NCBI GenBank assembly: GCA_030682405.1
Contig: JAUXOF010000041.1
Coordinates: 1-58,011, forward strand
Direction of reading: 5' to 3'
From: Thermodesulfovibrionales bacterium
Lineage (GTDB): Bacteria; Nitrospirota; Thermodesulfovibrionia; Thermodesulfovibrionales; JdFR-86
Length of the DNA: 58,011 nt
Below are positions 2,406-26,448 of this stretch, piece after piece (the first letter of the stretch is position 1; each line of letters opens with the position of its first letter). The notes under the pieces were generated by a model. That model saw nothing but the letters and a program-made list of their open reading frames with translations, was not told where the DNA came from and made no database searches. A program made the translations under genes and the position numbers.

Positions 2406-4428
2406 TCTTAATGATACCATAAGAGGCTGAGAGATTGAAGGGGTCCGCGGCCCCCGCCGGAGGGTCTGCGGGTTTACCGTCGTCAGCCCCGTCTGAAGGC
2501 GCCTCCCTATCCTCATCATTCCCTGCCCCTCTGCCGTTTTTATATCTGAAATATGTGGTCATTATGCGCTTGATGTACTCCTTTGTCTCGCGGTAGGGGA
2601 TGTCCTCCACGAATTCGTCGTATGAATCGTATCTGCCTTTTTCCAGCCACTCCGTAACCTTGTTCTCCCCTGCATTGTATGCCGCAAGCGCGGGAGGGCC
2701 GGAGCCGAAGTATTTCAACAGGCTGTTTAGGTAGTAAGAGCCGAGCCTTATGTTCGTTCCGGGCTCGTAGAGGTGCCCTGTTTTGAAATCGGCATTGAGG
2801 CCTCGGGCAAGGCGTTTTCCGGTCTGGGGCATTATCTGCATGATGCCGATTGCCCCGGCCCGTGAGACCGCATCCGGGCTGTAACGGCTCTCTTCCCTTA
2901 TGACCGAGAGGATGAGATAGGGGTCAACGGCAAACTCCCGTGAGGCATCCTTGACGGCAGGCCAGAAGGCAAGGGGGTAGAGTATCTCAAGCGGCCTTGA
3001 GTCTTGAGGAATGCCTGATATAAGGTATATCGCCCTGTTGTATTCGCCCATGTCCTTAAGCCTGAGGGCCGCGGCGATTAAATCCTCCTCTGAGGCAAGC
3101 TCCCGCGCGGCATATACCAGTTCCTTGACGGCATCTTCCCTCATGCCTGCCTCGGCAAGCGTGTCCGAACGCTTAAAAGGGTTTTTGCCGGAGGCCCGGC
3201 CGGGGATCCGGACGGCCTTTTTCGCCTGTGCGCCGATCAGTCGCTTTTCATTCGGGCCGCTTCTTTTTGCCGCAAGGAAGCCGTAATAGTCGTATTCCCC
3301 TTCAAGGCTGCTGTAAATATTTTCTGAGGGCTCTCCGGCCTTCTCCGCCGCCCTTGCCTTCCAGTAGATGTATTTTGTATTCCGGCCAGATAAGCAAAGC
3401 TCTGTAAAAACAGCAAGGGCTTTTTTGTAATCTCCGCCGAGGTAGTGCGTCCATCCCGTGAGCCAAAGCGCCTCTTCGGCATCAGAGGGGAAGTCCGCCC
3501 TTACACCGGCCAGCATCTTTAATGCCTCATCTGAGCCCCCTGCCCTTCTTTTGTCCGCTGCAAAAGATACGAGCAGCCTGCCTGCCCTGGCGTCGTTTGC
3601 CGCGATGAGCTTCTTAAGCGTATCGCTGAATGCCTCGCTGTCTCCTGCCCTGAAAAACGAAAGCGCGGCATAATAAAGGTCAGGGGCTTTCAGATAAGCC
3701 GCTGCCGCCTCCTTATATCTTTTCTGCCTGAAAAACGAATGGGCGAGCGTCTTTAGAATGTCAGCCCTGTGCCCTCCTCCGTCTTTTTTAAGCGCGGCCC
3801 TCAGGCCGGATTCCGCCTCATCGTAACTCATAGCCTTTATGAGGTTTGACGACCTCTCTATTATGTCCTGTGTGGAGATATCCGACTGCCGGAGTTCCTT
3901 GTAAGATTCCGCTGAGAACGCCCCTGCCCTGATATAAAGCTCCTTAAAAAGAGAGCCGGCCCTTTGCGCATCCCTGTCTTTCAGTTGCCCGGCAAGCAGA
4001 AACTTCATCTCTTCGTCGTCCGGATAGTCCCTGACGTAGGATTCAAGCAGGGGCAGGGCGGCCTTTTTGTCAGTCTCAAGCCTGATTTTTATGAGCATTG
4101 CCCTTGCCTGTCTCTTAATGGGAGTGCGGCTGTATTTTTCTATTAGCTCTGTAAGGCTTTCTGCCGATAGCTCCCTCCTCCGGGCCTCGTCCATGCCCTC
4201 TGCCTTAGCGTATGCAGTTGCCCTGTAATAAAGGGCGTAGTCGCCAAGCAGAGGGAGTTTTTCGTATGCATTTGTAAAGCAAGAGGCGGCGTTTTCGTAT
4301 TGGGCCGCATTTAAGAATATTACACCGGCCTTCAGGTAGTCTCCTCCGGACAGCCCTGAGACTGCGTCCGTCTCCTCTCCTGAGGCGATTACAGGCAGAA
4401 GCAGAAATAAAAGCAGGAGCTTTTTCAC
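2392..4428 (-). CDS. slt: soluble lytic murein transglycosylase (Slt70-like, TPR/helical N-terminus)
   Basis: Signal peptide, helical repeats, SLT motifs IREESRY, AIGIMQIMP, AAYNAG, IPYRETKEY. Confidence 0.88.
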   Translation of the reverse strand: MKKLLLLFLLLPVIASGEETDAVSGLSGGDYLKAGVIFLNAAQYENAASCFTNAYEKLPLLGDYALYYRATAYAKAEGMDEARRRELSAESLTELIEKYSRTPIKRQARAMLIKIRLETDKKAALPLLESYVRDYPDDEEMKFLLAGQLKDRDAQRAGSLFKELYIRAGAFSAESYKELRQSDISTQDIIERSSNLIKAMSYDEAESGLRAALKKDGGGHRADILKTLAHSFFRQKRYKEAAAAYLKAPDLYYAALSFFRAGDSEAFSDTLKKLIAANDARAGRLLVSFAADKRRAGGSDEALKMLAGVRADFPSDAEEALWLTGWTHYLGGDYKKALAVFTELCLSGRNTKYIYWKARAAEKAGEPSENIYSSLEGEYDYYGFLAAKRSGPNEKRLIGAQAKKAVRIPGRASGKNPFKRSDTLAEAGMREDAVKELVYAARELASEEDLIAAALRLKDMGEYNRAIYLISGIPQDSRPLEILYPLAFWPAVKDASREFAVDPYLILSVIREESRYSPDAVSRAGAIGIMQIMPQTGKRLARGLNADFKTGHLYEPGTNIRLGSYYLNSLLKYFGSGPPALAAYNAGENKVTEWLEKGRYDSYDEFVEDIPYRETKEYIKRIMTTYFRYKNGRGAGNDEDREAPSDGADDGKPADPPAGAADPFNLSASYGIIKNEIP

Positions 4429-7515: not shown

Positions 7516-7702
7516 AGGCCGGACTCCAAGTTTAATTATAACAAACTTTGCGGATTTCTATCGGAAATTTGGGGGCGATATTGAACTTCAACTGATGGCG
7601 AGGGCCGGAGTGACCAGAGATAAACCTAAGAGGCGTAAGGAAGTAACTGCGAGGAGTGGAGCAATGCATAGATAACGCTTGGTTTTTATATGATTATTGC
7701 TC

Positions 7703-7732
7703 TTGACAAGCGAACCTAAAGAGTGGTAATTT
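7703..7732 (+). promoter_or_regulatory. sigma70-type promoter for the AT-rich island genes
   Basis: TTGACA (7703-7708), 18 bp, TG-n-TAATTT extended -10 (7724-7732). Confidence 0.55.
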
Positions 7733-7795
7733 TAACCGTCATGGGGGCATCGAGCTTATGCGCGAAAAGGACAATTGCAAAAAGAGGCAACCCGC

Positions 7796-8530
7796 ATGAA
7801 ATTTGCACTCACTCACTCACTCACTCACTCACTTTTAGACCTTTACAAGAATTTTGCGATTAAAAACCCGAGGGCGTTTTCAAAGAAATTTGGAGATGCC
7901 TTTTTGTTTCGGAATATTACAATAATTGTTTTGTTATTTTCTGCTTGTCTAATCTCCTGCGATAGCAAAAAACTCACTCGAAACAAAGCCAAAAAAATGA
8001 TTAATGAATATAACCCTGGTTGGGTACACGGGATTTTAATAGGTGAAGTAACTGATACTGTGGATAGGAAGGATGTTGCTAAATTTGATTCACCTTGCTT
8101 TAATCTTAATGAAAGATATGAGCCGCTCGTTAAAGATGGATATTTGAATGTATCGCTTCTCAGCAAGAAGGGAAACAGAGGATGGTTCTCTTATGAAGTT
8201 ATAAGTTACGATATCACATGCAATGTTCAACCTATATCAAAACTGCAACCGTTTATAAAGAGTACCGAAGACCTTTCAAGCCTTAAGCAGAAAATAATCC
8301 GCATCATCATCGCAAGCGAAGAGCTAAAAGAGATTACTGGAATATTGCCTTTAAATTCTTCTATTGATGGAAGAACTATTAGTTCTGTGGAGTATACATA
8401 TACCATTAAGCCAACTCCTCCTGGAAGATATTTTTATACGCAAGATGAATTAGTTACCATCCAAAAAGGAACGATGCAATTTGTGTTATATGATAATGGT
8501 TGGAGGATAGGCAAAAAGGAAAATAGATGA
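7796..8530 (+). CDS. hypothetical lipoprotein (alternative start TTG 7904)
   Basis: AT-rich ORF with hydrophobic stretch and lipobox LISC. ATG 7796 has AGAGG upstream; TTG 7904 has GGAG 8 nt upstream and gives a canonical signal MFRNITIIVLLFSACLIS-C. Confidence 0.7.
   Translation: MKFALTHSLTHSLLDLYKNFAIKNPRAFSKKFGDAFLFRNITIIVLLFSACLISCDSKKLTRNKAKKMINEYNPGWVHGILIGEVTDTVDRKDVAKFDSPCFNLNERYEPLVKDGYLNVSLLSKKGNRGWFSYEVISYDITCNVQPISKLQPFIKSTEDLSSLKQKIIRIIIASEELKEITGILPLNSSIDGRTISSVEYTYTIKPTPPGRYFYTQDELVTIQKGTMQFVLYDNGWRIGKKENR
7806..7833. repeat. tetranucleotide simple sequence repeat (CACT)7
   Basis: Seven perfect CACT units counted directly; encodes LTHSLTHSL in the ATG 7796 frame. Confidence 0.95.
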
Positions 8531-8584
8531 GAGGATAAGTATATGAGTAATGGACAAGTTCCAAAATACAGGGAGGAATAATTT

Positions 8585-9328
8585 ATGAGACTATATTTTT
8601 TTATTGGCTTAATATCGTTAATATTTACTGGAATATCAATAGCTCAGGAACAGGAGAGCACAGTAGGAAAAATTCTTGAAAATGCCGTGGCTATAGATGA
8701 TGGTTATTTCGGAAGTGGCTATTATACTGAGGTCGAATCCATAGCATTTAAGAGTCTTGTTTCAATATTTGATATGGATATCTATAGTTATTTCGATGAC
8801 TTAGATATATACGAGACTCCTCTTCAGAAGAAAAAATTTGAAAAGACGCAGGAATACAGAGATAAAATGCTTGAACTAAAAAACTTAAAGCAAGAAATGT
8901 TAAAAAAATATTTTTATACTGCTGCTGCTTTCAGCGACAGCAGATGGAGCGAATATGATATTAAGCAAAAAGCTGTTAAACGGGAATTAGGTTCTGTCTA
9001 TAGCAGTAATAAATCGAAAATAATAGAAGAGGAATATTATTTGCCTTCACTACCTATAATAATAGTTAGGAAGTCTATGTGGGATAATCCTTTTGAAATT
9101 TATTACGAGCAATGGCTCCACTTACCTGCAAATGAAAGGCAGGGGAGTGAAATCGAGACAAGCAGTCTTCCTGCCTATCTGATATTTAAAATTACTGGTA
9201 CAAAAACTGTTGCCTACGGCCGCGAGATGAGAAAAGTTTTGGTAGCGAATACGGTAAGAGTAGTTATAGCAGATGCAGAAACTGGCAAGGTTTATTTTGA
9301 TAGGGTCTATCCTTCGGGGAAGAAATAG
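8585..9328 (+). CDS. hypothetical secreted protein
   Basis: SD GGAGG, signal peptide MRLYFFIGLISLIFTGISIA-QE, 247 aa AT-rich ORF; no family confidently recognised. Confidence 0.75.
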   Translation: MRLYFFIGLISLIFTGISIAQEQESTVGKILENAVAIDDGYFGSGYYTEVESIAFKSLVSIFDMDIYSYFDDLDIYETPLQKKKFEKTQEYRDKMLELKNLKQEMLKKYFYTAAAFSDSRWSEYDIKQKAVKRELGSVYSSNKSKIIEEEYYLPSLPIIIVRKSMWDNPFEIYYEQWLHLPANERQGSEIETSSLPAYLIFKITGTKTVAYGREMRKVLVANTVRVVIADAETGKVYFDRVYPSGKK

Positions 9329-9351
9329 CAATATAAGAATTAGGAGGCAAC

Positions 9352-9558
9352 ATGGAACATCAAGTAAAGGCAGTAGTAAACAAGTTTGAGCTTAGAAAAG
9401 GCGAAGCTATGAAATTAATAGTTAAAGCCCACGATAAAGTCTTAGGCACTATCACAATTGGGCAAGGCACTTTCAGGTGGACATCCAAGCATGGGAAAAA
9501 ATACAACAAGGTTTTTTCATGGAGTAAATTCGCAGAATTGATGGATAGACAGGATTAA
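9352..9558 (+). CDS. small hypothetical protein (68 aa, basic, beta-rich)
   Basis: SD AGGAGG; LGTITIGQGTFRW...SWSKFAELM resembles a widespread small accessory-protein family of unknown function. Confidence 0.7.
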   Translation: MEHQVKAVVNKFELRKGEAMKLIVKAHDKVLGTITIGQGTFRWTSKHGKKYNKVFSWSKFAELMDRQD

Positions 9559-9713
9559 TCTAACACATGTGTTATTTGGATTGGAAATCATCAACTGCCC
9601 TAGTCGAGAATTGTGTTGACAGTCGGCCTTCCGGTCGCCCCATTCCGATGACCTCTATGCGGTCTCCTCTATCACCTCCTCATCGTAGACGAACTGCCGG
9701 TAAAAATCAATCC

Positions 9714-9755
9714 CAGCGATGAAGCCCCAGCGACAGCGATGAAGCCCCAGCGACA
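9714..9755. repeat. 20 bp tandem duplication
   Basis: CAGCGATGAAGCCCCAGCGA at 9714-9733 and 9734-9753, plus CA. Confidence 0.9.
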
Positions 9756-9820
9756 TTGAACTTTTCAACATCCCCGTGTTAGTGTTTTGATACCATAGAA
9801 AATACCATAGAAGGGCAGAC

Positions 9821-10447
9821 ATGAAAGACTATCCGGCGAGACCGGGATTTCCGTGTGAGGAGTCGAAATTCCCTTGGCTTTCGATGCTCCTTGACGCTTA
9901 CGCGATTATTGACAGCGGGGTCGCCCTCGCCATAGACGAGCAGGAGGCCAAGCGCAGCGTGAAGCTGGCCTGCAAGGAGGGCTGCGACAACTGCTGCATG
10001 CAAAAAGACATTCCGGTCTATCCCCTCGAACTCGTGGGCATCTACTGGTTCTCTACTGAAAAGATAGTTCCGCCCGTGCGTAAAACCCTTAAGGAACAAC
10101 TCTCACAGCACGAAAAGAGCGACCCATGCCCGTTCCTGATGGACAATTCCTGCTCAATCCGCCCCATCCGGCCTGTTTCATGCAGGCAGTTCAATGTCCT
10201 CGGCAGGCCGTGCGACACGGGCGAAGACCCTTACTACAGCAGAAGGGGTGATGTCCTGACGCCGCTTGAGGAGTACACAGAACGGGCATTCTCGGCAATG
10301 ATGCCGTTTTACGGCGTATCAGGGGAAGCCGTAAGCGACCGGGCCGTAATAGACAGTATCATCCATGCTCAGGCCGGCAATATTCAGACATATGACTGGA
10401 AAAATCTGGCCCGAATAATGGACAACTTCGACTCTAAAAATATCTAA
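9821..10447 (+). CDS. YkgJ-family (Fe-S/Zn cysteine cluster) protein
   Basis: ACKEGCDNCC...CPFLMDNSCSIRPIRPVSCRQF is the YkgJ/flagellin N-methylase-like cysteine pattern. Confidence 0.85.
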   Translation: MKDYPARPGFPCEESKFPWLSMLLDAYAIIDSGVALAIDEQEAKRSVKLACKEGCDNCCMQKDIPVYPLELVGIYWFSTEKIVPPVRKTLKEQLSQHEKSDPCPFLMDNSCSIRPIRPVSCRQFNVLGRPCDTGEDPYYSRRGDVLTPLEEYTERAFSAMMPFYGVSGEAVSDRAVIDSIIHAQAGNIQTYDWKNLARIMDNFDSKNI

Positions 10448-10494
10448 TCTTCCTGATTTACAACTCCGCACGTATCGGCTAAACTATAGCAGGC

Positions 10495-12516
10495 ATGGAA
10501 AAGTTCCTGACAGTCTGTCCTTATTGCGGCTGCGGCTGCGGCCTGTACCTCCATACGGAGGGAGGCAGAATAACCGGCGTCTCTCCGAGCAGAAACCACC
10601 CGGTAAACACGGGCAGCCTCTGCGTGAAAGGCTGGAACTCATACGAGTTCATCCAGCACCCCGACCGGCTCAAATATCCGATGATAAGGGAGAGGGGGGC
10701 GCTCAGGCGCGCCACGTGGAAAGAGGCTCTCAGGAAGGTCGCCGGAGAACTCAGCCGGATAAAGGACTCCCGCGGCCCTGACGCCATAGGGGTTTTAAGC
10801 TCGGCCAAATGCACAAATGAGGAGAATTACCTCATGATGAAATTCGCAAGGGCAGCCATAGGCACAAACAACATAGACCATTGCGCAAGGCTCTGCCACT
10901 CCTCATCAGTGGGCGGGCTTTCGGCGGCGTTCGGCTCCGGCGCCATGACCAACTCCATAACCGAGATTAAGGACGCAAGGGTGCTCTTTGTCATAGGCTC
11001 AAACACCACGGAACAGCACCCCATGATAGGCATGCACATGCTTGATGCGGTAGACAGAGGGGCAAGCCTCATAGTGGCGGACCCGAGAAAAATCCCTCTT
11101 GCCGGTTTTGCCCGGATACACCTGAGGCACAGGTGCGGCACCGACGTTGCGCTCCTTTTGAGCATTATGAACGTAATTGTAGCCGAAGGGCTTGTTGATG
11201 TGGAATTTGTAAGGAGGAGGACCGAAAACTTCGATGCCTTCAGCAGCCTTCTTGAGGAATACCGCCCGGACACCGGCGAAAGGATTACAGGCGTAAAGGC
11301 CGATGATATAAAGAAAGCGGCAAGGCTCTACGCGTCTGAGAAGCGCTCCATGTTCTTTTACTCTATGGGCATAACCCAGCACGTCACAGGCGTGGACAAC
11401 GTTAAGGCATGCGCGGATCTCGTTATGCTTGCAGGCCACATCGGGCTTCCGATGACCGGGCTTAACCCCCTGCGCGGGCAGAACAATGTTCAGGGGGCCT
11501 GCGACATGGGCGCTCTCCCTGATTATTACTCAGGCTATCAGGCCGTTAAAAACCCGGCCTCAAGGAGGAAGTTCGAAAAGGCATGGAGGAAAAGGCTGCC
11601 CGATAGGCCCGGGCTTACGCTAATGGAAATGCTTCACGACGGGGTAAGGGCGATGTTCGTAATGGGGGAAAACCCCGCCCTCTCTGACCCGGATACGACC
11701 CATGTGAGAGAGCGCTTAGAGAGGCTCGACTTCCTTGCCGTTCAGGACATCTTCCTTACTGAAACCTCCGAGTATGCGGATGTGGTGCTGCCTGCGGCCT
11801 CGTTCGCCGAAAAAGACGGGACGTTTACGAACACCGAAAGAAGGGTGCAGCTTATAAGAAAGGCCGTAGAGCCCCCTCAGGAGGCAAGGCCCGACTGGCA
11901 GATAATATGCAATCTATCAGGGCTTATGGGCGCAAAGATGCATTACAGGGGCACATATGAAATAATGGAGGAAATAGCCCTTCTGACGCCGCACTACGGA
12001 GGCACCCTCCATCACCGGCTCGATGAGGGCTTCGGCCTTCAGTGGCCCTGCCCCGACATCTCGCACACCGGAACGCCGTATCTTCACAGGAAGAAGTTTG
12101 CAAGGGGGCTCGGCTCCTTCACGTCCGTAGGCTACATGCCGCCTGCCGAACTCCCTGACGGCGATTTCCCGTTTCTGCTTACAACGGGAAGAATCTCCTT
12201 CCAATACCACACAGGCACCATGACAAGGAGAACGCATATCATTGAGAGGGAAGAGCCGGTCTGCCTGATGGAGATTAATCCCGAAGACGCAAAAAGGCTC
12301 GGCATAGCAGAAAGACAGGGAGTCAGAGTTAAATCAAGAAGGGGAGAGATTACCGTAACCGCAGCGATTACCGAAAGGACTCCTGAGGGGACGGTGTTTC
12401 TGCCGTTTCATTACAGGGAGGCCGCAGCCAATATCCTTACGAATCCGGCCCTCGACCCGGCGGCAAAGATACCCGAGTTTAAGGTCTGCGCCGTAGCGAT
12501 AGAGAAGGCCGGATGA
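10495..12516 (+). CDS. fdhF: cytoplasmic Mo/W-bisPGD formate dehydrogenase catalytic subunit (FdhF-type, Cys ligand)
   Basis: CPYCGCGC...GSLCVKG [4Fe-4S] motif, ARLCH active-site Cys, PLRGQNNVQGACDMG, AEKDGTFTNTERRVQ, IPEFKVCAV; no Tat signal. Confidence 0.9.
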   Translation: MEKFLTVCPYCGCGCGLYLHTEGGRITGVSPSRNHPVNTGSLCVKGWNSYEFIQHPDRLKYPMIRERGALRRATWKEALRKVAGELSRIKDSRGPDAIGVLSSAKCTNEENYLMMKFARAAIGTNNIDHCARLCHSSSVGGLSAAFGSGAMTNSITEIKDARVLFVIGSNTTEQHPMIGMHMLDAVDRGASLIVADPRKIPLAGFARIHLRHRCGTDVALLLSIMNVIVAEGLVDVEFVRRRTENFDAFSSLLEEYRPDTGERITGVKADDIKKAARLYASEKRSMFFYSMGITQHVTGVDNVKACADLVMLAGHIGLPMTGLNPLRGQNNVQGACDMGALPDYYSGYQAVKNPASRRKFEKAWRKRLPDRPGLTLMEMLHDGVRAMFVMGENPALSDPDTTHVRERLERLDFLAVQDIFLTETSEYADVVLPAASFAEKDGTFTNTERRVQLIRKAVEPPQEARPDWQIICNLSGLMGAKMHYRGTYEIMEEIALLTPHYGGTLHHRLDEGFGLQWPCPDISHTGTPYLHRKKFARGLGSFTSVGYMPPAELPDGDFPFLLTTGRISFQYHTGTMTRRTHIIEREEPVCLMEINPEDAKRLGIAERQGVRVKSRRGEITVTAAITERTPEGTVFLPFHYREAAANILTNPALDPAAKIPEFKVCAVAIEKAG

Positions 12517-13589
12517 AGAAAAACATGCCAGTACCGATAAAAACCGAAGCGGTAAAAGAATGGGTGCTCGATAAAAACCATCTCTCTTACTGGCTGAGGC
12601 AGCTACGAAAGGACTTTGAGCTTGTTGCCCCGCTGAGGGAAAGAAATGACATAGTTTTAAAGAGAATAGACAGGATACATGAGATAGCCCTGGATTGCCC
12701 GGCCTCCATCCCCTCGCCCAAGGAGTTCCTGTTCCCGCAGTTCGAGCCGATGCTGACAAAGGGAACCGATGGGATTTCGGACCTCAGGGACGGCTCAAAA
12801 AGGGTCATCTTCGGTGTAAGGAGCTGCGATGTTTCGGCAGTGAATCTCCTTGATAAGTTTTATTTATCCGGCATTGCCGACCCGTATTATGAGTCAAGGA
12901 GGAAGAACACGCTCTTCATATCCTTAGTTTGCAATGTCCCTGACGGGACGTGTTTTTGCGCCGGGCTCGGCACCGGGCCGTATCTTAAGACAGGGTACGA
13001 CATACAGCTTTATGACCTCGGCGACAGATACCTCCTTCAGGCAGGCTCAAAAGATGCGGAGCGGCTGGTAGGCAGGCATAGGTTTTTGATGAGAAAACCC
13101 TCAAAAACAGACCACGAAGACCAGTACGAGGCGCAGGCCAGTTCAAAGGCGATGTTTGCAGAGCGCATAAGCCTTGAGGGCGCAAGGCAGATGATAACGG
13201 ACGGCAAGGTAGCGGATGATTTCTGGCAGGATGTTGCTGAAAGGTGTTTTGAGTGCGGCGGGTGCGTGTATGAATGTCCCCTCTGCACCTGTTTTAGCGT
13301 GATAGACAGGAAGTACAACGCCGGCCCGGCTGACGAGCAGGTGGAGAGGTCAAGGCTATGGGATGCATGCATGTTTAAGGGGTTTACGGGGATGGCAGGC
13401 GGGGCGCTGCCTGCTGAGAAAAGGATACTGAGGACAAAGAGGTGGTTTTACCATAAGCTCATCTATTATCCTGAAACGCTTGGGGCATTCGGATGCACGG
13501 GGTGCGGAAGGTGCACAATCACATGCCCGGGGAAAATAGACATGGCCTCTGTGGTTCACCGGATGGGGAACGAATACAGCAAGGGATGA
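12513..13589 (+). CDS. AsrA / sulfhydrogenase-beta-like 4Fe-4S dicluster protein
   Basis: FGVRSCD, CNVPDGTCFC, CFECGGCVYECPLCTCF, GCTGCGRCTITCP; ATGA overlap with fdhF. Confidence 0.85.
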   Translation: MKKNMPVPIKTEAVKEWVLDKNHLSYWLRQLRKDFELVAPLRERNDIVLKRIDRIHEIALDCPASIPSPKEFLFPQFEPMLTKGTDGISDLRDGSKRVIFGVRSCDVSAVNLLDKFYLSGIADPYYESRRKNTLFISLVCNVPDGTCFCAGLGTGPYLKTGYDIQLYDLGDRYLLQAGSKDAERLVGRHRFLMRKPSKTDHEDQYEAQASSKAMFAERISLEGARQMITDGKVADDFWQDVAERCFECGGCVYECPLCTCFSVIDRKYNAGPADEQVERSRLWDACMFKGFTGMAGGALPAEKRILRTKRWFYHKLIYYPETLGAFGCTGCGRCTITCPGKIDMASVVHRMGNEYSKG

Positions 13590-14437
13590 ACGCCAATAAC
13601 GTATATACGCCTTCTGAGGCGCTGATAGAGGAAGTCATAACCCTCAGCCGCAATGTAAACCTCTATACAGTCAAAACGAAAGAGGAGATAAAATGGCTGC
13701 CGGGACAGTTCTTCATGGTCTCTGTCTTCGGCTTTGGCGAGGCGCCCATATCGGTTACATCCTCTGCCCGCGAGCCTCTTAAGTTCTGCATAAAAAAAGT
13801 CGGGCATGTGACGGGCGCAATCCACGGCCTCAGGGCAGGGGATACAATCGGCATCCGCGGGCCTTACGGCAACGCCTTCCCGCTGGATGTCGCAAGGGGC
13901 AGGGATGTCGTGATAATAGCGGGAGGTCTCGGCATAGCCCCCCTGAGGCCGCTGATTCACGAATTCATGGAAAACGGAAAGGATTACGCAAGGGTCTTTC
14001 TCCTTTCCGGCTCAAAAACACCCGCAGATGTAATCTACAGTGAGGAATGCGCCCTATGGGAGAAGCGCGGCATAAGGGTTACGCTTACCGTTGACTGCCC
14101 GGACGATAGCTGGGATGTCTGCACAGGCCTCGTCACCGCCCATCTGGACAAGGTTGAGGCGGATTTCCAAAACGCCGCGTCATACATCTGCGGCCCGGAG
14201 GTCATGATAGAGGCGGCAATGAAGGCGGTCTCGGCAAGGGGCATCCCGGAGGAAAGGATAATCACCACGCTTGAGGCGCACATGAAATGCGGGGTGGGCA
14301 AGTGCGGCCACTGCTACATGGGGCCGAAATATATCTGCACCGACGGCCCTGTGTTTTCGTATAAGGAACTCCGGCGGTTGGCCGAAAGGTTCGGCAAAGG
14401 CCACGGCCCACAGGACGACCCGATGTGGGGATATTAG
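13586..14437 (+). CDS. AsrB / sulfhydrogenase-gamma-like FAD/NAD(P)-binding [2Fe-2S] subunit
   Basis: PGQFFMVS, GEAPISV, GIRGPYGN, AGGLGIAPLR, YICGPEVM, MKCGVGKCGHC...ICTDGPVF; ATG 13586 overlaps the upstream TGA. Confidence 0.85.
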   Translation: MNANNVYTPSEALIEEVITLSRNVNLYTVKTKEEIKWLPGQFFMVSVFGFGEAPISVTSSAREPLKFCIKKVGHVTGAIHGLRAGDTIGIRGPYGNAFPLDVARGRDVVIIAGGLGIAPLRPLIHEFMENGKDYARVFLLSGSKTPADVIYSEECALWEKRGIRVTLTVDCPDDSWDVCTGLVTAHLDKVEADFQNAASYICGPEVMIEAAMKAVSARGIPEERIITTLEAHMKCGVGKCGHCYMGPKYICTDGPVFSYKELRRLAERFGKGHGPQDDPMWGY

Positions 14438-14787
14438 GAAATCTCTCTCGGCTCGATGAGGAGTCGGACGCCTTCTACTATCCGGTTGACCTTCGAGCCG
14501 GATAAAGAGCCTATCTTTTCGGAAAGGTCGGATTTATCCACCGTAATCAGCTGGGATATGTTGGCCACGCTGTCTTTTTTGAGATTGCCCTCCCCCCGTT
14601 TAAGGAATACGTTTCCGGGGGCGTTTGCCCGCTTAAGGTTGGAAGTTATAGCGCAGCAGACGACGGTATTAATCCTGCTTTCGTTGAAGATGTTATTTTG
14701 AATAACCACATAGGGATGCCGGTAGCCGGGGGCCGAACCCGAAGTGGAGCCTAAATCAATCCAATAAATATCCCCCTGCCTTATCAA
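14434..14787 (-). CDS. mazF: type II TA toxin, MazF/PemK family endoribonuclease
   Basis: RQGDIYWIDLG...GYRHPYVVIQNN...TVVCCAITSN...SVANISQLITVDK; TTG start overlapping the antitoxin stop. Confidence 0.88.
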   Translation of the reverse strand: MIRQGDIYWIDLGSTSGSAPGYRHPYVVIQNNIFNESRINTVVCCAITSNLKRANAPGNVFLKRGEGNLKKDSVANISQLITVDKSDLSEKIGSLSGSKVNRIVEGVRLLIEPREIS

Positions 14788-15032
14788 TATTTCTCCCTGC
14801 GAATCTTCCTCCTGAAATAGCCCTTACCCGCTTCCCTTGCGGCCTTCTCCTCTTCGGTCTCCTCCTCCAAATAGGCGGCGTTCAACGCTCGTAAAATCTC
14901 CCTTGACCTCATTTTCTCAAGGTATTCCGTTGCGGCCCTGACAAACACCTCGCTCCGAGAAAAGTGGTGCTCCCGCGCGAAGTTTTCAACTTCCTTAAAT
15001 ATCTCGTCCGGAACGGATATGGCTGTTTTCAT
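14784..15032 (-). CDS. ribbon-helix-helix antitoxin
   Basis: MKTAISVPDEIF...SRSEVFVRA (RHH) immediately upstream of the toxin; acidic C-terminal part. Confidence 0.85.
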   Translation of the reverse strand: MKTAISVPDEIFKEVENFAREHHFSRSEVFVRAATEYLEKMRSREILRALNAAYLEEETEEEKAAREAGKGYFRRKIRREKY

Positions 15033-15038
15033 ACTTTA

Positions 15039-15067
15039 ATTATGACCAATTGTAATACTAATGTCAA
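15039..15067 (-). promoter_or_regulatory. sigma70 promoter of the TA operon, leaderless
   Basis: Minus strand TTGACA (15067-15062), 17 bp, CATAAT (15044-15039), 6 nt, ATG. Confidence 0.75.
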
Positions 15068-15107
15068 TACTTTAAAGCCCCCTCTTACCAAACATAATCG
15101 CTATTGC

Positions 15108-15770
15108 TCATTTTGCTTCCCTTATTATGCTGACACCGTTTGATGTCCCGATTCTCGTAGCGCCCGCCTCTACCATCTCCATGACATCCCTTAGGGTCTT
15201 TATCCCGCCTGCGGCCTTAATGCCCGCAGGGGACTCCCCCAGAACCTTTTTTATGAGCCTTACGTCCTCAACGGTTGCCCCTCCCGTGCCGAAGCCAGTC
15301 GAGGTCTTTATAAAATCAGCGCCTGCCTCAAGGCAGACCTCCACGGCCTTTGCCTTTTCCTTGTTTGTCAGGTAGCAGCACTCTATTATCGCCTTATGAA
15401 GAAGCCCCTCGGTAACTAATATCACTCCTCGGAGGTCTCTTTGCACAGTCTGCCAGTCGCCTGATTTTGCCCTCCCTATGTTAATCACCACATCCAGTTC
15501 ATCCGCACCGAGGAGGCCGGCCTGCATGGCCTCATAGACCTTGGCGCTTGCGAGGTTCATGCCCAGAGGAAACCCTATGACCGTTACAACCTTGACGCCG
15601 CTGCCCGAAAGGGCCTGCTTTGCGGTCTGTATGAAATGAGGGTTTACGCATACGGAATAAAACCCGCACCTCACGGCCTCGCGGCACAGCCTCTTTATAT
15701 CCGCTTCGGTGGCATCAGGCTTAAGGAGGCTGTGGTCTATGAGTCTTGCAACCTCACCGCTATTCATCAT
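15108..15770 (-). CDS. deoC: deoxyribose-phosphate aldolase
   Basis: IDHSLLKPDAT, VIGFPLG, ELDVVINIG, GADFIKTSTGF, IKAAGGI, RIGTS. Confidence 0.95.
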   Translation of the reverse strand: MMNSGEVARLIDHSLLKPDATEADIKRLCREAVRCGFYSVCVNPHFIQTAKQALSGSGVKVVTVIGFPLGMNLASAKVYEAMQAGLLGADELDVVINIGRAKSGDWQTVQRDLRGVILVTEGLLHKAIIECCYLTNKEKAKAVEVCLEAGADFIKTSTGFGTGGATVEDVRLIKKVLGESPAGIKAAGGIKTLRDVMEMVEAGATRIGTSNGVSIIREAK

Positions 15771-16653
15771 ACCCCCATATCGAAGGCCCCTGTGCCTTCA
15801 TATGCTCGACATATGCCTTGACCTCCTGCCTGTACGCCTTATGAAGAAGCCTTGTGATGCCTCCGACCGCATACCTTGCATCGTCAACACCGGAGACCGG
15901 CATGACCTCCATCGTGGTATTCGTAAGAAAAACCTCCTCTGCCGAATAGATGTCCTCCCTTCCAAACTCACCGGCCTTCACGGTGAGACCTTCCTTAACA
16001 GCCAGTTCAAGCACAATCCCCCTCGTTATGCCGTCAAGGATTCCGCACTCTATAGAGGGGGTGCAGAGGACGCCGCCTTTAGAGAAAAATAGATTGCTTA
16101 TCGAGCCTTCGGTAAGCGCCCCGGAGGCGTTCAGCATCACGGCCTCGTATGCCCCCCCCTGAGCCGCCTCTATCTTTGCAAGGATGTTATTGAGGAAGTT
16201 CAGGGACTTGATTTCGGGGTTCAGTGCCTCCCTGAGGTTCCTGCGCACCGAGGGTATCGCCACCCTTATGCCGTTTTCATAGAGCGCAGCCGGGTATTGC
16301 TTCATTGCCTCAGCCATAATCACAAGCGTGGGGGACGGACAAAGCTCCGGGTCAAGCCCTATAGGCCCGTATCCCCTTGATACGGTCAGCCTGATGTAGG
16401 CATCCCTGAGCTTATTGGCCTGAAGCGTTTCGTATACCATGAGCTTCAGGGAATCGGAGTCCGCAGGCAGATTAATCCGTATCATGGAGGCGGAGCGGGC
16501 AAGCCTCCTTAAATGCTCATCGAGCATGAAGACAACTCCGTCGTAGCAGCGCATGGTCTCGTAAACCCCGTCCCCGTAAAGAAAACCGTGGTCAAAGACG
16601 GAGACCACCGCCTCGGAGCGGGGCACAAGCCTGTCGTTTAAGTAAACGTACAT
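15760..16653 (-). CDS. PLP aminotransferase class IV (IlvE/DAT/PabC family)
   Basis: VFDHGFLYGDGVYETMR, IKSLNFLNNILAK, EGSISNLF, ILDGITR, EVFLTNT; substrate not resolvable from sequence. Confidence 0.88.
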   Translation of the reverse strand: MYVYLNDRLVPRSEAVVSVFDHGFLYGDGVYETMRCYDGVVFMLDEHLRRLARSASMIRINLPADSDSLKLMVYETLQANKLRDAYIRLTVSRGYGPIGLDPELCPSPTLVIMAEAMKQYPAALYENGIRVAIPSVRRNLREALNPEIKSLNFLNNILAKIEAAQGGAYEAVMLNASGALTEGSISNLFFSKGGVLCTPSIECGILDGITRGIVLELAVKEGLTVKAGEFGREDIYSAEEVFLTNTTMEVMPVSGVDDARYAVGGITRLLHKAYRQEVKAYVEHMKAQGPSIWGYDE

Positions 16654-16808
16654 GCGGTAATTATATCACTAACCGCCGCCTGATGAAGCCCTTAAAGAAT
16701 ACCCCCTCTTTTTCTCTTGTCTATACGGCCTGCCTCGTATAAAATAGTAGATTGATTCGGGACTGCATATGATACGCTTTATGAAAATAACTGCACTGAA
16801 AGGCAGGC

Positions 16809-18623
16809 ATGTCAGAGAAGACCTCTCCTGTTAAGGGCATAGTGCAGGCCCTTGGGCTTGTCTTCGGGGACATAGGCACAAGCCCCATATACACGCTGAC
16901 AGTCGTATTCCTCCTTCTTGCGCCAACCCCTGCAAATGTCCTCGGAGTCCTGTCGCTTGTGGTCTGGACCCTTGTGGCACTTGTTACGGTGCAGTATGCG
17001 TGGCTTGCCATGAGCCTGTCGAGAAGGGGCGAAGGCGGGGAGATAGTTCTGAAGGAAATTCTGCGTTCGCTCACAGGATCCAAAAAAGGGTTCGGCCTAA
17101 TAGCCGTGCTGCCCATAATAGGCGTCTCCCTTCTCATAGGAGACGGGGTCATCACCCCTGCAATCAGCATCCTGAGCGCGGTTGAGGGCGCTGTGCTCAT
17201 ACCCGGCCTCGGCGGGCTTTCTAAAGGCTACATAGTCATGATATCGGCCATAATAGCGATAATGCTCTTTACCTTCCAGAGCAGGGGCACAGAGAAGGTG
17301 GCAGGGGCCTTCGGCCCGGTGATGGGCGTGTGGTTTTCCGCTCTTGCCGTGGTGGGACTGCTCGGCATCGCCGAGGCGCCTGAGGTCCTCCGGGCGTTCA
17401 ACCCCTACCACGCCCTCAATTTCCTCCTTACCAACAAGTTTGCGGGTTTCATCGCTCTCGGCGAGATAATACTCTGCGCAACCGGAAGCGAGGCCATGTA
17501 CGCGGACATGGGGCATCTGGGAAGTAAACCGATAAGGCAGGCGTGGGTAGGCGTCTTTTTCGCCCTCATCCTGAACTATATGGGTCAGGGGGCATTTCTC
17601 CTTGCGCACCCCGGCACAAAAAACATACTTTTTGAGATGGTATTTTACTATGCGCAGTTCCTGTATGTCCCGTTTCTCCTTCTTAGCATCTCGGCAACCG
17701 TAATCGCATCTCAGGCAATGATAAGCGGGGTCTTCTCCATAGTCTATCAGGGAATAACAACAAGGCTCATGCCCATGTTCAAGGTGGACTACACCTCCAT
17801 AGAGAGGCGCTCCCAGATATACATAAGCTCTGTCAACTGGTTTTTGCTCCTTGCAGTCATATTCATAATGATTGAGTTTCAGGAGTCCCACCGCCTTGCC
17901 GCGGCCTACGGCCTTGCGGTCACAGGCTCGATGACGCTTACGGGCATCGTGATGGCCGTGATATTTTACCTGAAGAAAAAGCCGCTCCTCTTTCTCGTGT
18001 CGCTCGCGGTTGCGTTCATAGACGCCTCGTATCTTGTCGCGAACTTCTATAAAATCCCCCACGGAGGGTACTGGTCTCTCATACTGGCCTCAATCCCGCT
18101 TGCGATGATAACCCTTTACATAAAAGGGCAAAGGAGGCTTTACAGGGTGATGGATTTCATGCCCCTTGAGGACTTCCTGCATAAGTTCGGCAGGGTTTAC
18201 AAAATAACCGAGAAGATAAAGGGCACAGCCCTGTTCCTCTTAAAGGACACTGCCCGGATACCCTTTTACATAACCCAGACCATGTTCTTCCACGGGGTGA
18301 TGTACGAGGACAACATCTTCGTCTCCATCATCAAAAGGGACGACCCCTATGGTGTCATCGGTTTCTTTAAAGATGACCTTTCCGGGGGCCTCAGGGTCTT
18401 TGAGGTTCAGATGGGGTACATGGAGATGATAGACGTTGAGGAACTCCTCCGCGAGGCAGGCATTGAAGAGCGCGTAGTCTTCTACGGCCTTGAGGACATC
18501 AGTACGGCAAACCCGGTGTGGAAGGTGTTTTCCCTTATAAAAAGGATAACCCCGCCCTTCATACAGTTTTACAAGTTCCCGCCTAAAAAGCTCCACGGCG
18601 TGCTCACAAAGATAGTAATCTGA
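16809..18623 (+). CDS. kup: KUP/HAK/KT potassium transporter
   Basis: LGLVFGDIGTSPIY, GEGG, GDGVITPAISILSAVEG, GSEAMYADMGH, LAAAYGLAVT. Confidence 0.95.
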   Translation: MSEKTSPVKGIVQALGLVFGDIGTSPIYTLTVVFLLLAPTPANVLGVLSLVVWTLVALVTVQYAWLAMSLSRRGEGGEIVLKEILRSLTGSKKGFGLIAVLPIIGVSLLIGDGVITPAISILSAVEGAVLIPGLGGLSKGYIVMISAIIAIMLFTFQSRGTEKVAGAFGPVMGVWFSALAVVGLLGIAEAPEVLRAFNPYHALNFLLTNKFAGFIALGEIILCATGSEAMYADMGHLGSKPIRQAWVGVFFALILNYMGQGAFLLAHPGTKNILFEMVFYYAQFLYVPFLLLSISATVIASQAMISGVFSIVYQGITTRLMPMFKVDYTSIERRSQIYISSVNWFLLLAVIFIMIEFQESHRLAAAYGLAVTGSMTLTGIVMAVIFYLKKKPLLFLVSLAVAFIDASYLVANFYKIPHGGYWSLILASIPLAMITLYIKGQRRLYRVMDFMPLEDFLHKFGRVYKITEKIKGTALFLLKDTARIPFYITQTMFFHGVMYEDNIFVSIIKRDDPYGVIGFFKDDLSGGLRVFEVQMGYMEMIDVEELLREAGIEERVVFYGLEDISTANPVWKVFSLIKRITPPFIQFYKFPPKKLHGVLTKIVI

Positions 18624-18824
18624 CCCGTGTCCTAAAAGTATTTATCCTACATTCAACCTCGAAATGCAACAGAGGCGACTTCTCTACGAGCCTTCGGCCT
18701 GCTCGGCAGTCTGTCCCCTACTGTCTTCGTTTGGCTGAACTGGTTCGGGTTGACCAGTTCCGTCCTTCCGTAATACATTAACCGCATGAGAAACAAGATA
18801 AACCACAGAGGACACGGAGGAACT

Positions 18825-18857
18825 ACCTCCCCTAACCCCTCCTTAGCAAGGAGGGGA
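18825..18857. repeat. REP-like GC-rich hairpin, preceded by AACCACAGAGGACACGGAG motif
   Basis: Stem CCCCTCCTT (18836-18844) / AAGGAGGGG (18848-18856) with leader ACCTCCCCTAA; similar to the element at 40188. Confidence 0.65.
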
Positions 18858-19038
18858 TTTAATCCAGAAAAAGAAGAAAGGCGGGATGGAAATGCTTTAC
18901 AGATGCTTTACAAATGCTTTACATTTAAACCATTTCTGGACATGGTTTCCTTAAAAATCAACCACTTGGCCATACCCCCCCCCTCCCCCCTGTTTTATAA
19001 AGCAAAGAGGGCTTGCAGCCGGTTTTTTAAGGCGGCTG

Positions 19039-19047
19039 TGATATAAT
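19039..19047 (+). promoter_or_regulatory. extended -10 promoter for the pfkB-family gene
   Basis: TGaTATAAT at 19039-19047; SD GAGGTG before ATG 19074. Confidence 0.55.
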
Positions 19048-19073
19048 ATTCAAACTTCATTTTGAGGTGAAAG

Positions 19074-19982
19074 ATGGGACTTCTTGTAGTAGGCTCTGTG
19101 GCGTTTGATTCGGTTGAGACCCCTTTTGGAAAGGCAGAGGACGCATTGGGCGGCTCCGCCACTTTCTTTTCCACATCCGCAAGCTATTTTACGGACGTAA
19201 GCCTCGTTGCGGTCGTTGGAGACGACTTTCCCGAGAAACACATAAACTTCCTTAAGACGAGAAAGATAGATTTAAAGGGGCTTCAGAGGACAGAGGGAAA
19301 AACATTCAGGTGGAAGGGAAAATACGGCTATGACCTGAACGAGGCCCATACCTTAAGCACAGAGCTTAACGTCTTTGAGAGCTTCAAGCCCAAAATTCCC
19401 GCGGAGTATAAAGACGCAGAGGTGGTCTTCCTTGCAAACATAGACCCGGACCTTCAGAGGGATGTGCTTGGGCAGGTGAAAAAACCGAAAATCGTGGCCG
19501 CAGACACCATGAACTTCTGGATAGAGGGCAAGCGCGACTCCCTCATAAAGACCCTCAAGCTCGTGGACATACTGCTTATAAACGACAGCGAGGCAAGGCA
19601 GCTTTCAGGAGAGCCTAACCTCGTTAAGGCCGCAAGGAAGATAGCAGCTTACGGCCCAAAGACAATCGTAATCAAGCGCGGCGAGCACGGAGTTTTGATG
19701 TTCCACAAAGAGAGCGTATTTTCCGCACCTGCCATGCCGCTTGAGGACGTCTTTGACCCCACAGGCGCCGGGGATACCTTTGGAGGCGGGTTCATGGGCT
19801 ATCTTTCAAGCGTGATGGACTGGAGCGAGAACAACATGAGAAAGGCAATAATAATGGGAAGCGTGATGGCCTCTTTCAATGTAGAGGACTTCAGCCTGAA
19901 CCGCATTAAAAACCTCGAATATTCCGAGATAGAGGCAAGGTACAGGGAATTCAAAAAGCTCGCGCATTTCGAGGACATCTGA
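19074..19982 (+). CDS. PfkB-family carbohydrate/nucleoside kinase
   Basis: GSVAFDSVETPFG...GGSATF, VIKRGEHG, DPTGAGDTFGGG. Confidence 0.9.
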   Translation: MGLLVVGSVAFDSVETPFGKAEDALGGSATFFSTSASYFTDVSLVAVVGDDFPEKHINFLKTRKIDLKGLQRTEGKTFRWKGKYGYDLNEAHTLSTELNVFESFKPKIPAEYKDAEVVFLANIDPDLQRDVLGQVKKPKIVAADTMNFWIEGKRDSLIKTLKLVDILLINDSEARQLSGEPNLVKAARKIAAYGPKTIVIKRGEHGVLMFHKESVFSAPAMPLEDVFDPTGAGDTFGGGFMGYLSSVMDWSENNMRKAIIMGSVMASFNVEDFSLNRIKNLEYSEIEARYREFKKLAHFEDI

Positions 19983-20000: not shown

Positions 20001-20693
20001 TTAAGGGGAACGGCTTTCCTCCAGCCCTGCAAGCTCTTCTCCGTAGGATTTTTTCTCCTCAAGGAGGGATTCTTTTTCTTCAAGCATGGGCTTGAGTTCT
20101 TTTTCAAGGTCTGCCATCTCTTTTTCAAGCTTCTGCTTTCTGAGGGAGTTTATCTGCGACCATTCCCTTTCCTGAGGGGAAAGGAACTGGAACCATACGG
20201 ATATGTCTTTTCCCGCGGCTGCAGCGGCTTTTCTTCCTCTCTGGAAGAGCACCTCTATCCTGAGCCTCGCCTCGTCATAGTCCTTTTTGAGGGCGTTGTA
20301 TCCGTCTTCCTTTTCCTGTATCTCGGCAAGCCTGCCGTTGACCTTATCGGTGAACCTCTTAAGCTCCTCTATCCTCTGCGCCCTCATAGGGTCTTCGGCA
20401 GGTTTCTCAGGAGGCTTCGCCCCGGCAGTCCCGGTTGCGGCCTCCTCTTTCCGCGGCTCTACCTTCACCGGCTCGCCTACGTCTTCTATCCTGAGGATAT
20501 CGGCCTCGGGGATTTCAAGCAGGCCGCCGTAAACATAGAGCAGGAACTTGCCGTTGACCTTTTTATAGGAGGCCACGCCTTTTATTACAGAGCCGTTTTT
20601 AAGATAGACGGATGCGGCCTCTGATGCAGCCTGCGCAAACAGCAGGAATAAAACCGCAAAGGATATGACCACAAAGCAGTCTTTGATTTTCAT
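20001..20693 (-). CDS. hypothetical exported protein with C-terminal coiled coil
   Basis: Signal peptide, VYLKNGSVIKG beta-domain, Pro/Ala linker, long heptad region. Confidence 0.7.
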   Translation of the reverse strand: MKIKDCFVVISFAVLFLLFAQAASEAASVYLKNGSVIKGVASYKKVNGKFLLYVYGGLLEIPEADILRIEDVGEPVKVEPRKEEAATGTAGAKPPEKPAEDPMRAQRIEELKRFTDKVNGRLAEIQEKEDGYNALKKDYDEARLRIEVLFQRGRKAAAAAGKDISVWFQFLSPQEREWSQINSLRKQKLEKEMADLEKELKPMLEEKESLLEEKKSYGEELAGLEESRSP

Positions 20694-20703
20694 GGCTTAT
20701 ATT

Positions 20704-23753: not shown

Positions 23754-23805
23754 TTGTTAATAATAACACGAAGGACATTAAACAGCGGAAACTACTCGTT
23801 AAGGA

Positions 23806-23847
23806 ATGAAAAAGGCCGTCCCGAAGTATCGGGACGGCCTTTTTCAT
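23806..23847. terminator. bidirectional intrinsic terminator downstream of hppA
   Basis: 19 bp perfect inverted repeat ATGAAAAAGGCCGTCCCGA / TCGGGACGGCCTTTTTCAT with a 4 nt loop. Confidence 0.85.
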
Positions 23848-23867
23848 GAGGCTGTATCAGAGTCCGC

Positions 23868-25928: not shown

Positions 25929-26013
25929 CCGCTCTCCTCCTTTGTTAATTTAAATTTTTCGCTCCTAAAAAGAAACCCCTAAAAGAGACCCCTCACCTCC
26001 CTTGCGTTTCTAA

Positions 26014-26448
26014 TCACCCCGGATACTTATCCGTTATGTAGTCTTTGAGATAATGCACCTCGGCCTGCAGATTGCTGACCTGCGCCGTTACCAAGTCCCT
26101 TATGGAAAGCACGCTCACAACCCTGCCCTTGTCGAGCACGGGCAGATGCCTAACCTTATTCTGTATCATGATGGACATGGCGTAGGAGACATCGTCGTCT
26201 AACTCTGCTATGAACAGGTTCTTCGTCATCACGTCCTTCACCGCAACGCCCTCAAAAGTGCCCTTTGCCGCCCAGCACTTAAGCACATCCCTTTCCGTGA
26301 ACATTCCGGCCGTCTTGCCTTCCTCCACTATGAGGAGCGCCCCTATATTCCTGTCAATCATCTTTGAGACGGCATCCGTAATCAGGGTGTCGCCGTCAAT
26401 GGCGATAACCTCAAAACCCTTGCTTCTTATGAGGTCTCTTACTTTCAT
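26014..26448 (-). CDS. stand-alone tandem CBS-domain protein
   Basis: MKVRDLI...IGALLIV...GMFTERD...DVMTKN...VRHLPVLD..VLSIRDLV; TAATG overlap with the qmoC stop. Confidence 0.9.
   Translation of the reverse strand: MKVRDLIRSKGFEVIAIDGDTLITDAVSKMIDRNIGALLIVEEGKTAGMFTERDVLKCWAAKGTFEGVAVKDVMTKNLFIAELDDDVSYAMSIMIQNKVRHLPVLDKGRVVSVLSIRDLVTAQVSNLQAEVHYLKDYITDKYPG

Follow-up and report, generated by a model that had tools for sequence, protein, structure and literature searches.

The window analysed here is the whole of a 58,011-nucleotide contig (GenBank assembly GCA_030682405.1, contig JAUXOF010000041.1) from a Thermodesulfovibrionales bacterium of the phylum Nitrospirota, a groundwater sulfate reducer whose relatives are metagenome-assembled genomes (MAGs) of the Thermodesulfovibrionia and Nitrospirota. 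It is one contig (C14) of a 2.03-Mb genome that is 99.8% complete, and it is to this assembly that all statements of absence from the whole genome refer. We concentrate on a triad of co-oriented, adjacent genes within it (Table 1), which encode FdhA, the catalytic subunit of a formate dehydrogenase (FDH), and two further subunits, beta and gamma, that resemble the HydB/HydG subunits of sulfhydrogenases and the AsrA/AsrB subunits of anaerobic sulfite reductase.

Table 1. Features of the triad locus and its surroundings (positions in the window)
Feature	Position	Strand	Basis
fdhA, cytoplasmic Mo/W-bisPGD formate dehydrogenase catalytic subunit, Cys type, 673 aa	10495..12516	+	TIGR01591, Pfam, motifs
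beta, HydB/AsrA-like multi-[4Fe-4S] electron-transfer subunit, 358 aa	12513..13589	+	Fer4_22, ShyB/AsrA/HydB models
gamma, HydG/AsrB-like FAD, NAD(P), [2Fe-2S] subunit, 283 aa	13586..14437	+	FAD_binding_6, NAD_binding_1, DHODB_Fe-S_bind
fdhA/beta junction, ATGA overlap	12513-12516		ggATGAag
beta/gamma junction, ATGA overlap	13586-13589		ggATGAac
YkgJ-like CxxCxxCC protein, probably outside the unit	9821..10447	+	PF03692, 26.5 bits; co-oriented neighbour
Weak sigma-70-like promoter match TTTACA-17-TAAACT, predicted	10457..10485	+	consensus scan only, 9/12 positions; not evidence of function
MazF toxin and 82-aa presumed antitoxin ORF, convergent with gamma	14434-15032	-	PemK_toxin, 93 bits (MazF)
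AT-rich stretch	7680-9600		GC 0.39 vs about 0.53
Perfect (CACT)7 microsatellite	7806-7833		
Perfect tandem repeat, 20-nt unit, 2.1 copies	9714-9755		
Perfect tandem repeat, 12-nt unit, 1.9 copies	9790-9812		

The fdhA-beta-gamma locus

The three genes are chained by ATGA overlaps at both junctions, as the initial annotation of the sequence had noted, and the translational coupling that this entails counts in favour of their products acting together. For gamma we prefer the start at 13586 to that of a longer open reading frame (ORF) beginning at 13493, because the orthologs align from residue 1-6.

FdhA scores 834.1 bits against the NCBIfam equivalog model TIGR01591 (cut-off 666.25), falls below the cut-off for every other molybdenum-enzyme model, and has the Pfam domains Molybdop_Fe4S4, Molybdopterin, and Molydop_binding. 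It begins MEKFLTVCPYCGCGCG, with neither a NuoG-type N-terminal extension nor a twin-arginine signal, the lack of the latter having been noted at the outset. The N-terminal [4Fe-4S] (FS0) motif, CPYCGCGCG...SLCVKGW, is present and is invariant in the orthologs, and the active site contains both the Cys-His pair (in CARLCHSS) and the Arg (in LRGQNNVQG), with every ortholog retaining CARL(C/U)H and the Arg. The position of the ligand Cys is occupied by an in-frame TGA specifying selenocysteine (Sec) in L025, in L040, and in six loci from metagenomes (8 in all) and by Cys in 41, an alternation that is typically a hallmark of working FDHs. The best matches in the PDB are all FDHs: the alpha subunit of the F420-dependent FDH (9T1S), which is the nearest solved relative (chain 9t1s_L, 2e-222, full length), FdhF of the hydrogen-dependent CO2 reductase (HDCR), and Fdh-Hdr. 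By score, FS0 motif, and Cys-His and Arg residues, FdhA belongs with the catalytic subunits of the metal-dependent FDHs (FdhA/FdhF), and with its intact catalytic residues it is predicted to be catalytically competent.

Beta contains a Fer4_22 domain and aligns with HydB of Pyrococcus furiosus soluble hydrogenase I (SHI; chain 9nez_B, 6e-36) with every aligned Cys conserved; 15 Cys are invariant among 14 orthologs. Gamma, whose [2Fe-2S] domain is of the PyrK type, aligns with HydG of the same enzyme (9nez_C, 2e-48), and its xPIS, GGxGxxPLR, CGP, and CGxGxCGxC...C motifs are kept across orthologs. An AlphaFold2 model of beta alone, which we used solely for fold confirmation given its mediocre confidence (pLDDT 64, with the Fe-S domain low), has a template modelling (TM) score of 0.71-0.75 to 9nf0_B and 9nez_B, 9nf0 being the NADPH-bound structure of SHI. 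The fold of beta also bears a faint resemblance to that of the FrhB-family protein HCAR (E 0.017).

No other partner for these subunits was found. The beta of the triad is the only AsrA-like gene in the whole genome, which also has no match to AsrC (TIGR02912) above the cut-off, the best reaching 44 bits against a required 324 and being DsrB. The sole real [NiFe] hydrogenase of the genome is an Mvh-type enzyme on contig C25, accompanied by its small subunit, a protease, HdrA, and MvhD; a second match to PF00374 was ruled out as a hydrogenase, since it is NuoD of complex I. The alpha and delta subunits of group-3b hydrogenases are absent from the genome and from the locus. The initial annotation had described a locus free of AsrC and of [NiFe] subunits and had left room for a hydrogenase or AsrC partner encoded elsewhere; the first observation extends to the genome, which lacks AsrC and any group-3b hydrogenase, and the search for the second came back empty. 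The locus has no NuoEF genes either, again in keeping with that description (a NuoEF-type FDH lies on another contig, see below), and no hdr or mvhD genes adjoin the triad.

Conservation and descent of the module

The neighbourhood search proposed with the initial annotation, for fdhF, asrA, and asrB together without asrC or hydrogenase genes, finds the arrangement conserved across genomes and metagenomes. Among 301 Nitrospirota genomes sampled evenly, about 40 (about 13%) have a beta ortholog (at least 52% identity, E <1e-115), the other 140 beta matches being paralogs with at most 39% identity, and the triad is present in 12 of 12 orthologs drawn from this sample. It is likewise intact in all 12 Nitrospirota genome loci recovered with beta, with fdhA directly upstream and gamma directly downstream. 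In 80 metagenome loci, counting only contigs with enough room on the relevant side, FdhA is upstream in 63 of 63 and gamma downstream in 65 of 66. That the arrangement recurs in over 100 independent loci puts it far beyond chance. The surroundings vary: moaA lies upstream in four loci, and even the closest relative has different flanks. As the flanks vary and the triad is constant, we take the three genes to be the selected unit.

Two suggestions made with the initial annotation do not survive this comparison. The YkgJ-like gene lies beside the triad in the window only and in none of about 110 related loci, so that we reject it as an operon member on synteny, and the dedicated maturation or Fe-S role once considered for it is unsupported. 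Nor does anything link the triad to QmoAB/Hdr-type flavoproteins, which it had been thought possibly to feed: the qmo genes are more than 12 kb away on the opposite strand, and the triad's flanks are variable.

The genome-contig and metagenome scans recovered only close orthologs (at least 49% identity); the wider reach of the triad comes from a search of representatives together with contig look-ups. In a representative library of 1.84 billion proteins the entire Nitrospirota group collapses to one representative, and the next relatives of beta have at most 41% identity (33-41%), ten of them forming a sister clade. These distant carriers comprise Bacillota, Candidatus Desantisbacteria, and unassigned contigs. 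Every sister-clade beta examined, like the outliers P0121 and P0128, is preceded by an intact FdhA (50-64% identity), which is of Sec or Cys type wherever the contig spans the active site, and gamma follows downstream wherever the contig allows (variants built without gamma are weighed below). In Metallumcola ferriviriculae, a cultured member of the Bacillota, Sec-FdhA, beta, and gamma are followed directly by a PrpR_N/sigma-54 activator, and a Ca. Desantisbacteria MAG is another carrier. Thus the architecture that the initial annotation called unusual occurs in a sizeable share of Nitrospirota genomes and in other phyla, and has already been the subject of a published hypothesis (PMC12142623).

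The same beta-gamma module is put to other uses by paralogs. In Nitrospirota, loci L055-L061 are beta-gamma-delta-alpha group-3b hydrogenases. In loci L048-L051, beta-gamma follows an FdhA-like protein (~36% identity) in which Tyr-Ser replaces Cys-His and the Arg is lost, and precedes HycI, NuoL-like, and HycE-like genes, that is, a membrane hydrogenase resembling formate hydrogenlyase (FHL) or Hun. In two more (L052, L053), no catalytic partner of beta-gamma was identified nearby, and a further locus (L054) contains the pair as well. In a maximum-likelihood tree of beta, all 25 FDH-linked sequences form a single clade (85/99). Its sister group consists of the betas of the membrane hydrogenases (99/97); the group-3b betas, P. 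furiosus HydB among them, lie apart. The sister position to betas from membrane hydrogenases with a degenerate FdhA-like subunit suggests, as a concrete hypothesis, how that module may have originated. Both uses of beta stand side by side in a Clostridia MAG (WJOT01000115.1; L159), where MobA-like, FdhD, and Rex genes separate an FdhA-beta pair from a second, downstream beta-gamma pair that leads to HycB/HycD-like membrane hydrogenase genes.

Proposed function and comparison with known systems

What might the triad do? We propose that it probably encodes a soluble, cytoplasmic, heterotrimeric, and reversible formate:NAD(P)+ oxidoreductase. FdhA would oxidise formate at a Cys-ligated Mo- or W-bis(pyranopterin guanine dinucleotide) (bisPGD) centre, from which the electrons would exit through the [4Fe-4S] cluster of FdhA itself and then the [4Fe-4S] chain of beta to the [2Fe-2S] cluster and FAD of gamma, where NAD(P)+ would be reduced. 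The beta-gamma diaphorase known from group-3b sulfhydrogenases would in this enzyme be joined to an FDH rather than to a [NiFe] dimer. The reaction is expected to be reversible, with NAD(P)H driving CO2 reduction at low formate; we favour formate oxidation, and under standard conditions the oxidative direction is the thermodynamically downhill one. The triad itself is real, conserved, and widespread, and the mechanism is plausible but unproven. The first reading of the sequence, which saw in it a three-subunit cytoplasmic enzyme acting as formate:NAD(P) oxidoreductase or as CO2 reductase, is well supported on comparative grounds, namely operon conservation, catalytic residues, Sec/Cys alternation, and cofactor ligands.

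Several points weigh against this proposal. Beta and gamma lie below every NCBIfam equivalog cut-off (bits/cut-off for beta: ShyB 188/690, HydB 140/750, and AsrA 154/323; for gamma: ShyC 201/600, HydG 170/650, PRK08345 226/395, and AsrB 219/289), so that any function carried over from SHI or Asr would be transferred by homology and not by orthology. The choice between NAD and NADP is not legible in the sequence; a Lys of gamma that aligns with an Arg of P. furiosus HydG was discarded as a guide because the GS[RK][TN]P motif recurs throughout the FNR family, NADH-using FNR-type proteins included. Gamma is, moreover, missing beside FdhA-beta in three of the distant loci. In one (L154), its place after FdhA-beta is taken by a flavodoxin-like protein (Flavodoxin_2/FMN_red-SCP2, FMN reductase), in another (L156), the genes after FdhA-beta are those for FdhD, an ABC transporter of the molybdate/tungstate type, and MoeA, and in the Clostridia MAG the FdhA-beta pair without gamma lies inside a RACo-CooC-AcsD-AcsE Wood-Ljungdahl cluster. 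As such variants exist, beta would seem able to serve other acceptors, and the authors of the Hun study assumed ferredoxin as the partner or input of the AsrAB-like subunits. It is conceivable on these grounds that beta-gamma does not use NAD(P) at all and that ferredoxin, sulfur or polysulfide, or another protein receives its electrons, which would make the enzyme a formate:ferredoxin or formate:sulfur oxidoreductase, the latter in line with studies based on KEGG Orthology (KO) that read hydBG as an S0 reductase (PMC9326234). We consider this unlikely, as gamma has the FNR-type FAD/NAD(P) domain in full, keeps the GGxGxxPLR motif, and is retained in nearly all metagenome loci, its nearest solved homolog binds NADPH (9nf0), and no sulfur-handling genes are conserved near the triad.

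The direction in which a formate:NAD(P)+ oxidoreductase would run in the cell has to be considered against the other one-carbon genes of the genome, which encodes Fhs, FolD, and ACS (a complete-looking Wood-Ljungdahl pathway), FdhD, and a FocA-family channel. A second FDH operon on contig C22 (positions 20027-27251) consists of NuoE-like, NuoF-like, and Sec-FdhA genes, a gene for a 151-aa cyclic nucleotide monophosphate (cNMP)-binding protein, and fhs, with folD nearby; its Sec-FdhA has a NuoG-type N-terminus and a ligand motif that aligns as CARLUH. Because this Sec-FDH sits beside fhs and folD, we regard the NuoEF/Sec enzyme as the pathway-linked FDH and the triad as a second, selenium-free cytoplasmic FDH, which most likely ties formate, whether imported or of internal origin, to the NAD(P)H pool. 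The C22 operon has features of its own, in that the NuoF-like protein has a C-terminal dicluster ferredoxin domain and a cNMP-binding gene between fdhA and fhs is unusual. Two more NuoE/NuoF/NuoG-like sets are found on contig C83 (positions 9841-19954), with Mo-domain subunits (826 and 862 aa) lacking the Cys-His pair and the Arg and with one NuoE-like protein (291 aa) fused to an N-terminal response-regulator receiver domain.

The main rival to formate oxidation as the job of the triad assigns the same complex to CO2 reduction. Driven by NAD(P)H and independent of selenium (Cys type), it would supply the methyl branch of the Wood-Ljungdahl pathway, either as a back-up or as an alternative point of entry. 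The genome has that pathway and depends on Sec for the FDH linked to it, the FdhA-beta pair of the Clostridia MAG is embedded in an acs/RACo cluster, and NAD(P)H-driven CO2 reduction is what was proposed for the homologous cluster of Desulfurivibrio dismutans (PMC12142623). Yet the D. dismutans copy is expressed weakly (PMC12142623), the triad is not near any Wood-Ljungdahl gene while the pathway has its own NuoEF-type FDH beside fhs, and the FocA-family channel suggests that formate is exchanged with the outside. Energetics also oppose it: under standard conditions NAD(P)H would have to reduce CO2 uphill, the potentials being about -420 to -430 mV for CO2/formate and -320 mV for NAD(P)H. We therefore give it a minor share of the probability, though a larger one than the change of acceptor discussed above.

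Two further alternatives question the partners or the substrate, and both seem very improbable to us. Other Nitrospirota have homologs of beta-gamma that work with hydrogenases of groups 3b and 4, and one could imagine that beta-gamma or FdhA joins a hydrogenase or sulfite reductase encoded elsewhere, in a split FHL or a sulfhydrogenase/Asr system; in this genome, however, there are no group-3b alpha or delta subunits and no AsrC, the sole [NiFe] hydrogenase is already equipped with its own HdrA and MvhD (for which reason we rejected it as a partner), and the FDH-linked betas form a clade separate from the hydrogenase-linked ones, with the triad conserved in the absence of hydrogenase genes. 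Likewise, the functional diversity of the Mo-bisPGD family, and the sizeable scores of FdhA against the NasC and NapA models, might point to a substrate other than formate or CO2, but those scores are below threshold, FdhA passes the cut-off of the FDH equivalog only, its Cys/Sec-His and Arg residues are exactly as in solved FDHs, and its best structural matches are to no other kind of enzyme.

Taking the triad to be a formate:NAD(P)+ oxidoreductase, how does it compare with known systems? In D. dismutans AMeS2, HydB and HydG of an FdhA-HydB-HydG cluster (RS03135-RS03125) have been proposed to pass NAD(P)H electrons to FdhA (PMC12142623, 2025). There, too, a cytoplasmic FdhA is followed by sulfhydrogenase-type HydB and HydG without HydA or HydD, and a separate FDH is linked to the Wood-Ljungdahl pathway. 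The triad is of this type, with its co-oriented adjacent genes, its lack of hydrogenase and AsrC genes, and its conservation across genomes, although D. dismutans belongs to the Desulfobacterota and its cluster is known by genomic and proteomic inference without enzymology. The triad is thus of a known but uncharacterised kind, the idea of which is already in print as a genomic hypothesis (PMC12142623). Our literature search found no study with a purified enzyme of the FdhA-beta-gamma type, and the accessible portion of a 2026 review of metal-dependent FDHs does not mention sulfhydrogenase- or Asr-type partners. What the window and its comparison with relatives add is a clean Cys-type member, the definition of the clade, a cultured carrier, and the link to the input modules of membrane hydrogenases.

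The characterised enzyme that is functionally nearest is Fdh3 of Thermococcus onnurineus, a cytoplasmic, Cys-type, NADP-dependent W-FDH that reduces NADP+ and, with NADPH, CO2, but does so with a GltD/NfnB-like NAD(P) subunit and two separate Fe-S proteins and has no HydB/HydG-type subunits (PMC8965080). In the NuoEF-type NAD-linked FDHs (Rhodobacter capsulatus FdsABGD, 6TGA, and the host's own Sec-FDH on C22), a soluble Mo/W FDH is similarly wired to a nicotinamide-binding flavoprotein, but this is a NuoE/NuoF (FMN) diaphorase evolutionarily unrelated to beta-gamma, and FdhA has a NuoG-like N-terminus. The F420-dependent FdhAB of methanogens (9T1S) shares the short FdhA without NuoG-type N-terminal domains, docked to a separate Fe-S/flavin subunit; its partner, however, is FdhB of the FrhB family, which uses F420, and not beta-gamma.

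Among the systems that share beta and gamma, P. furiosus SHI (9NEZ/9NF0) has homologous subunits of the same fold, with conserved Cys ligands and flavin/nicotinamide motifs, and binds NADPH, but its catalytic module is a [NiFe] alpha-delta dimer. The window proteins agree with group-3b sulfhydrogenases in ligands, motifs, and fold, and differ in scoring far below the HydB/HydG and ShyB/ShyC cut-offs, in belonging to a separate clade, and in having no [NiFe] neighbours. AsrA and AsrB of Salmonella AsrABC are also homologous to beta and gamma (154 and 219 bits), but both scores are under the equivalog cut-offs and the siroheme subunit AsrC is absent from the genome, which places the triad outside that family. 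In the Hun/FHL-like group-4 membrane hydrogenases (bioRxiv 10.1101/536078; the Saganbacteria cluster in PMC6349859), the order of Mo-subunit, beta, and gamma is the same and the betas are sisters, but the FdhA-like subunit lacks Cys-His and Arg and the module is attached to HycE/NuoL-like membrane subunits. The arrangement of Desulfovibrio FlxABCD-HdrABC, with flxABCD beside hdrABC and an MvhD-like FlxD, is not seen at the locus; a convergent MazF gene lies downstream of the triad instead.

More speculatively, FdhA-beta(-gamma) enzymes may constitute a class of their own among the soluble Mo/W FDHs/CO2 reductases linked to NAD(P), the third beside the NuoEF and GltD types, broad in phylogeny, compact in its three subunits and with natural selenium-free variants, and may perhaps even be the source of the "dead FdhA" plus beta-gamma input module of Hun/FHL-like hydrogenases. 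The annotation of metagenomes is affected by these findings. The usual labels of such beta and gamma genes are "sulfhydrogenase (sulfur reductase)", "anaerobic sulfite reductase A/B", or just "4Fe-4S dicluster protein", and MAG studies based on KO count hydBG as sulfur-reduction potential (PMC9326234). Where they stand beside an intact FdhA, these genes are more probably a sign of formate/NAD(P)H metabolism. The characterised architectures of NAD(P)-linked metal FDHs are few, and a compact Cys-type enzyme with a possible NADPH-dependent CO2 reductase activity is of interest for biocatalysis; the cultured carrier M. ferriviriculae makes the function testable.

Flanking features

The YkgJ-like gene ends 47 nt before fdhA, and the promoter-like match of Table 1 falls within this gap. 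A sigma-54 promoter was also sought, because relatives of the triad have a histidine kinase and a sigma-54 activator upstream, but no site was found near 9.5-10.5 kb, and matches across the window are rarer than in shuffled sequence. In two of the related loci (L013, L014), fdhA is directly preceded by genes for a sensor kinase and for a response regulator of the sigma-54-dependent type, and in a third (L037), by tblastn only, the region upstream of fdhA resembles the kinase and NtrC-type regulator of the window. In the closest relative, a genome of the same family (G031, locus L036), a glutaredoxin gene and a gene resembling the catalytic chain of ferredoxin-thioredoxin reductase occupy positions 3016-3599 and end 9 nt before fdhA. 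A small Cys-rich redox protein is thus encoded at this position both there and, as the YkgJ-like protein, in the window, a recurrence that could be coincidence.

On the other side of the triad, the stop regions of gamma and of the convergent MazF gene overlap by 4 nt, and an 82-aa ORF upstream of the MazF gene is its presumed antitoxin. A MazE/MazF pair is also found about 1.8 kb downstream of a Sec-type triad on an unassigned contig (L149), its MazF being 39% identical. Just upstream of the locus is the AT-rich stretch, whose encoded proteins have no Pfam match and which contains the microsatellite, and the two tandem repeats immediately precede the start codon of the YkgJ-like gene.

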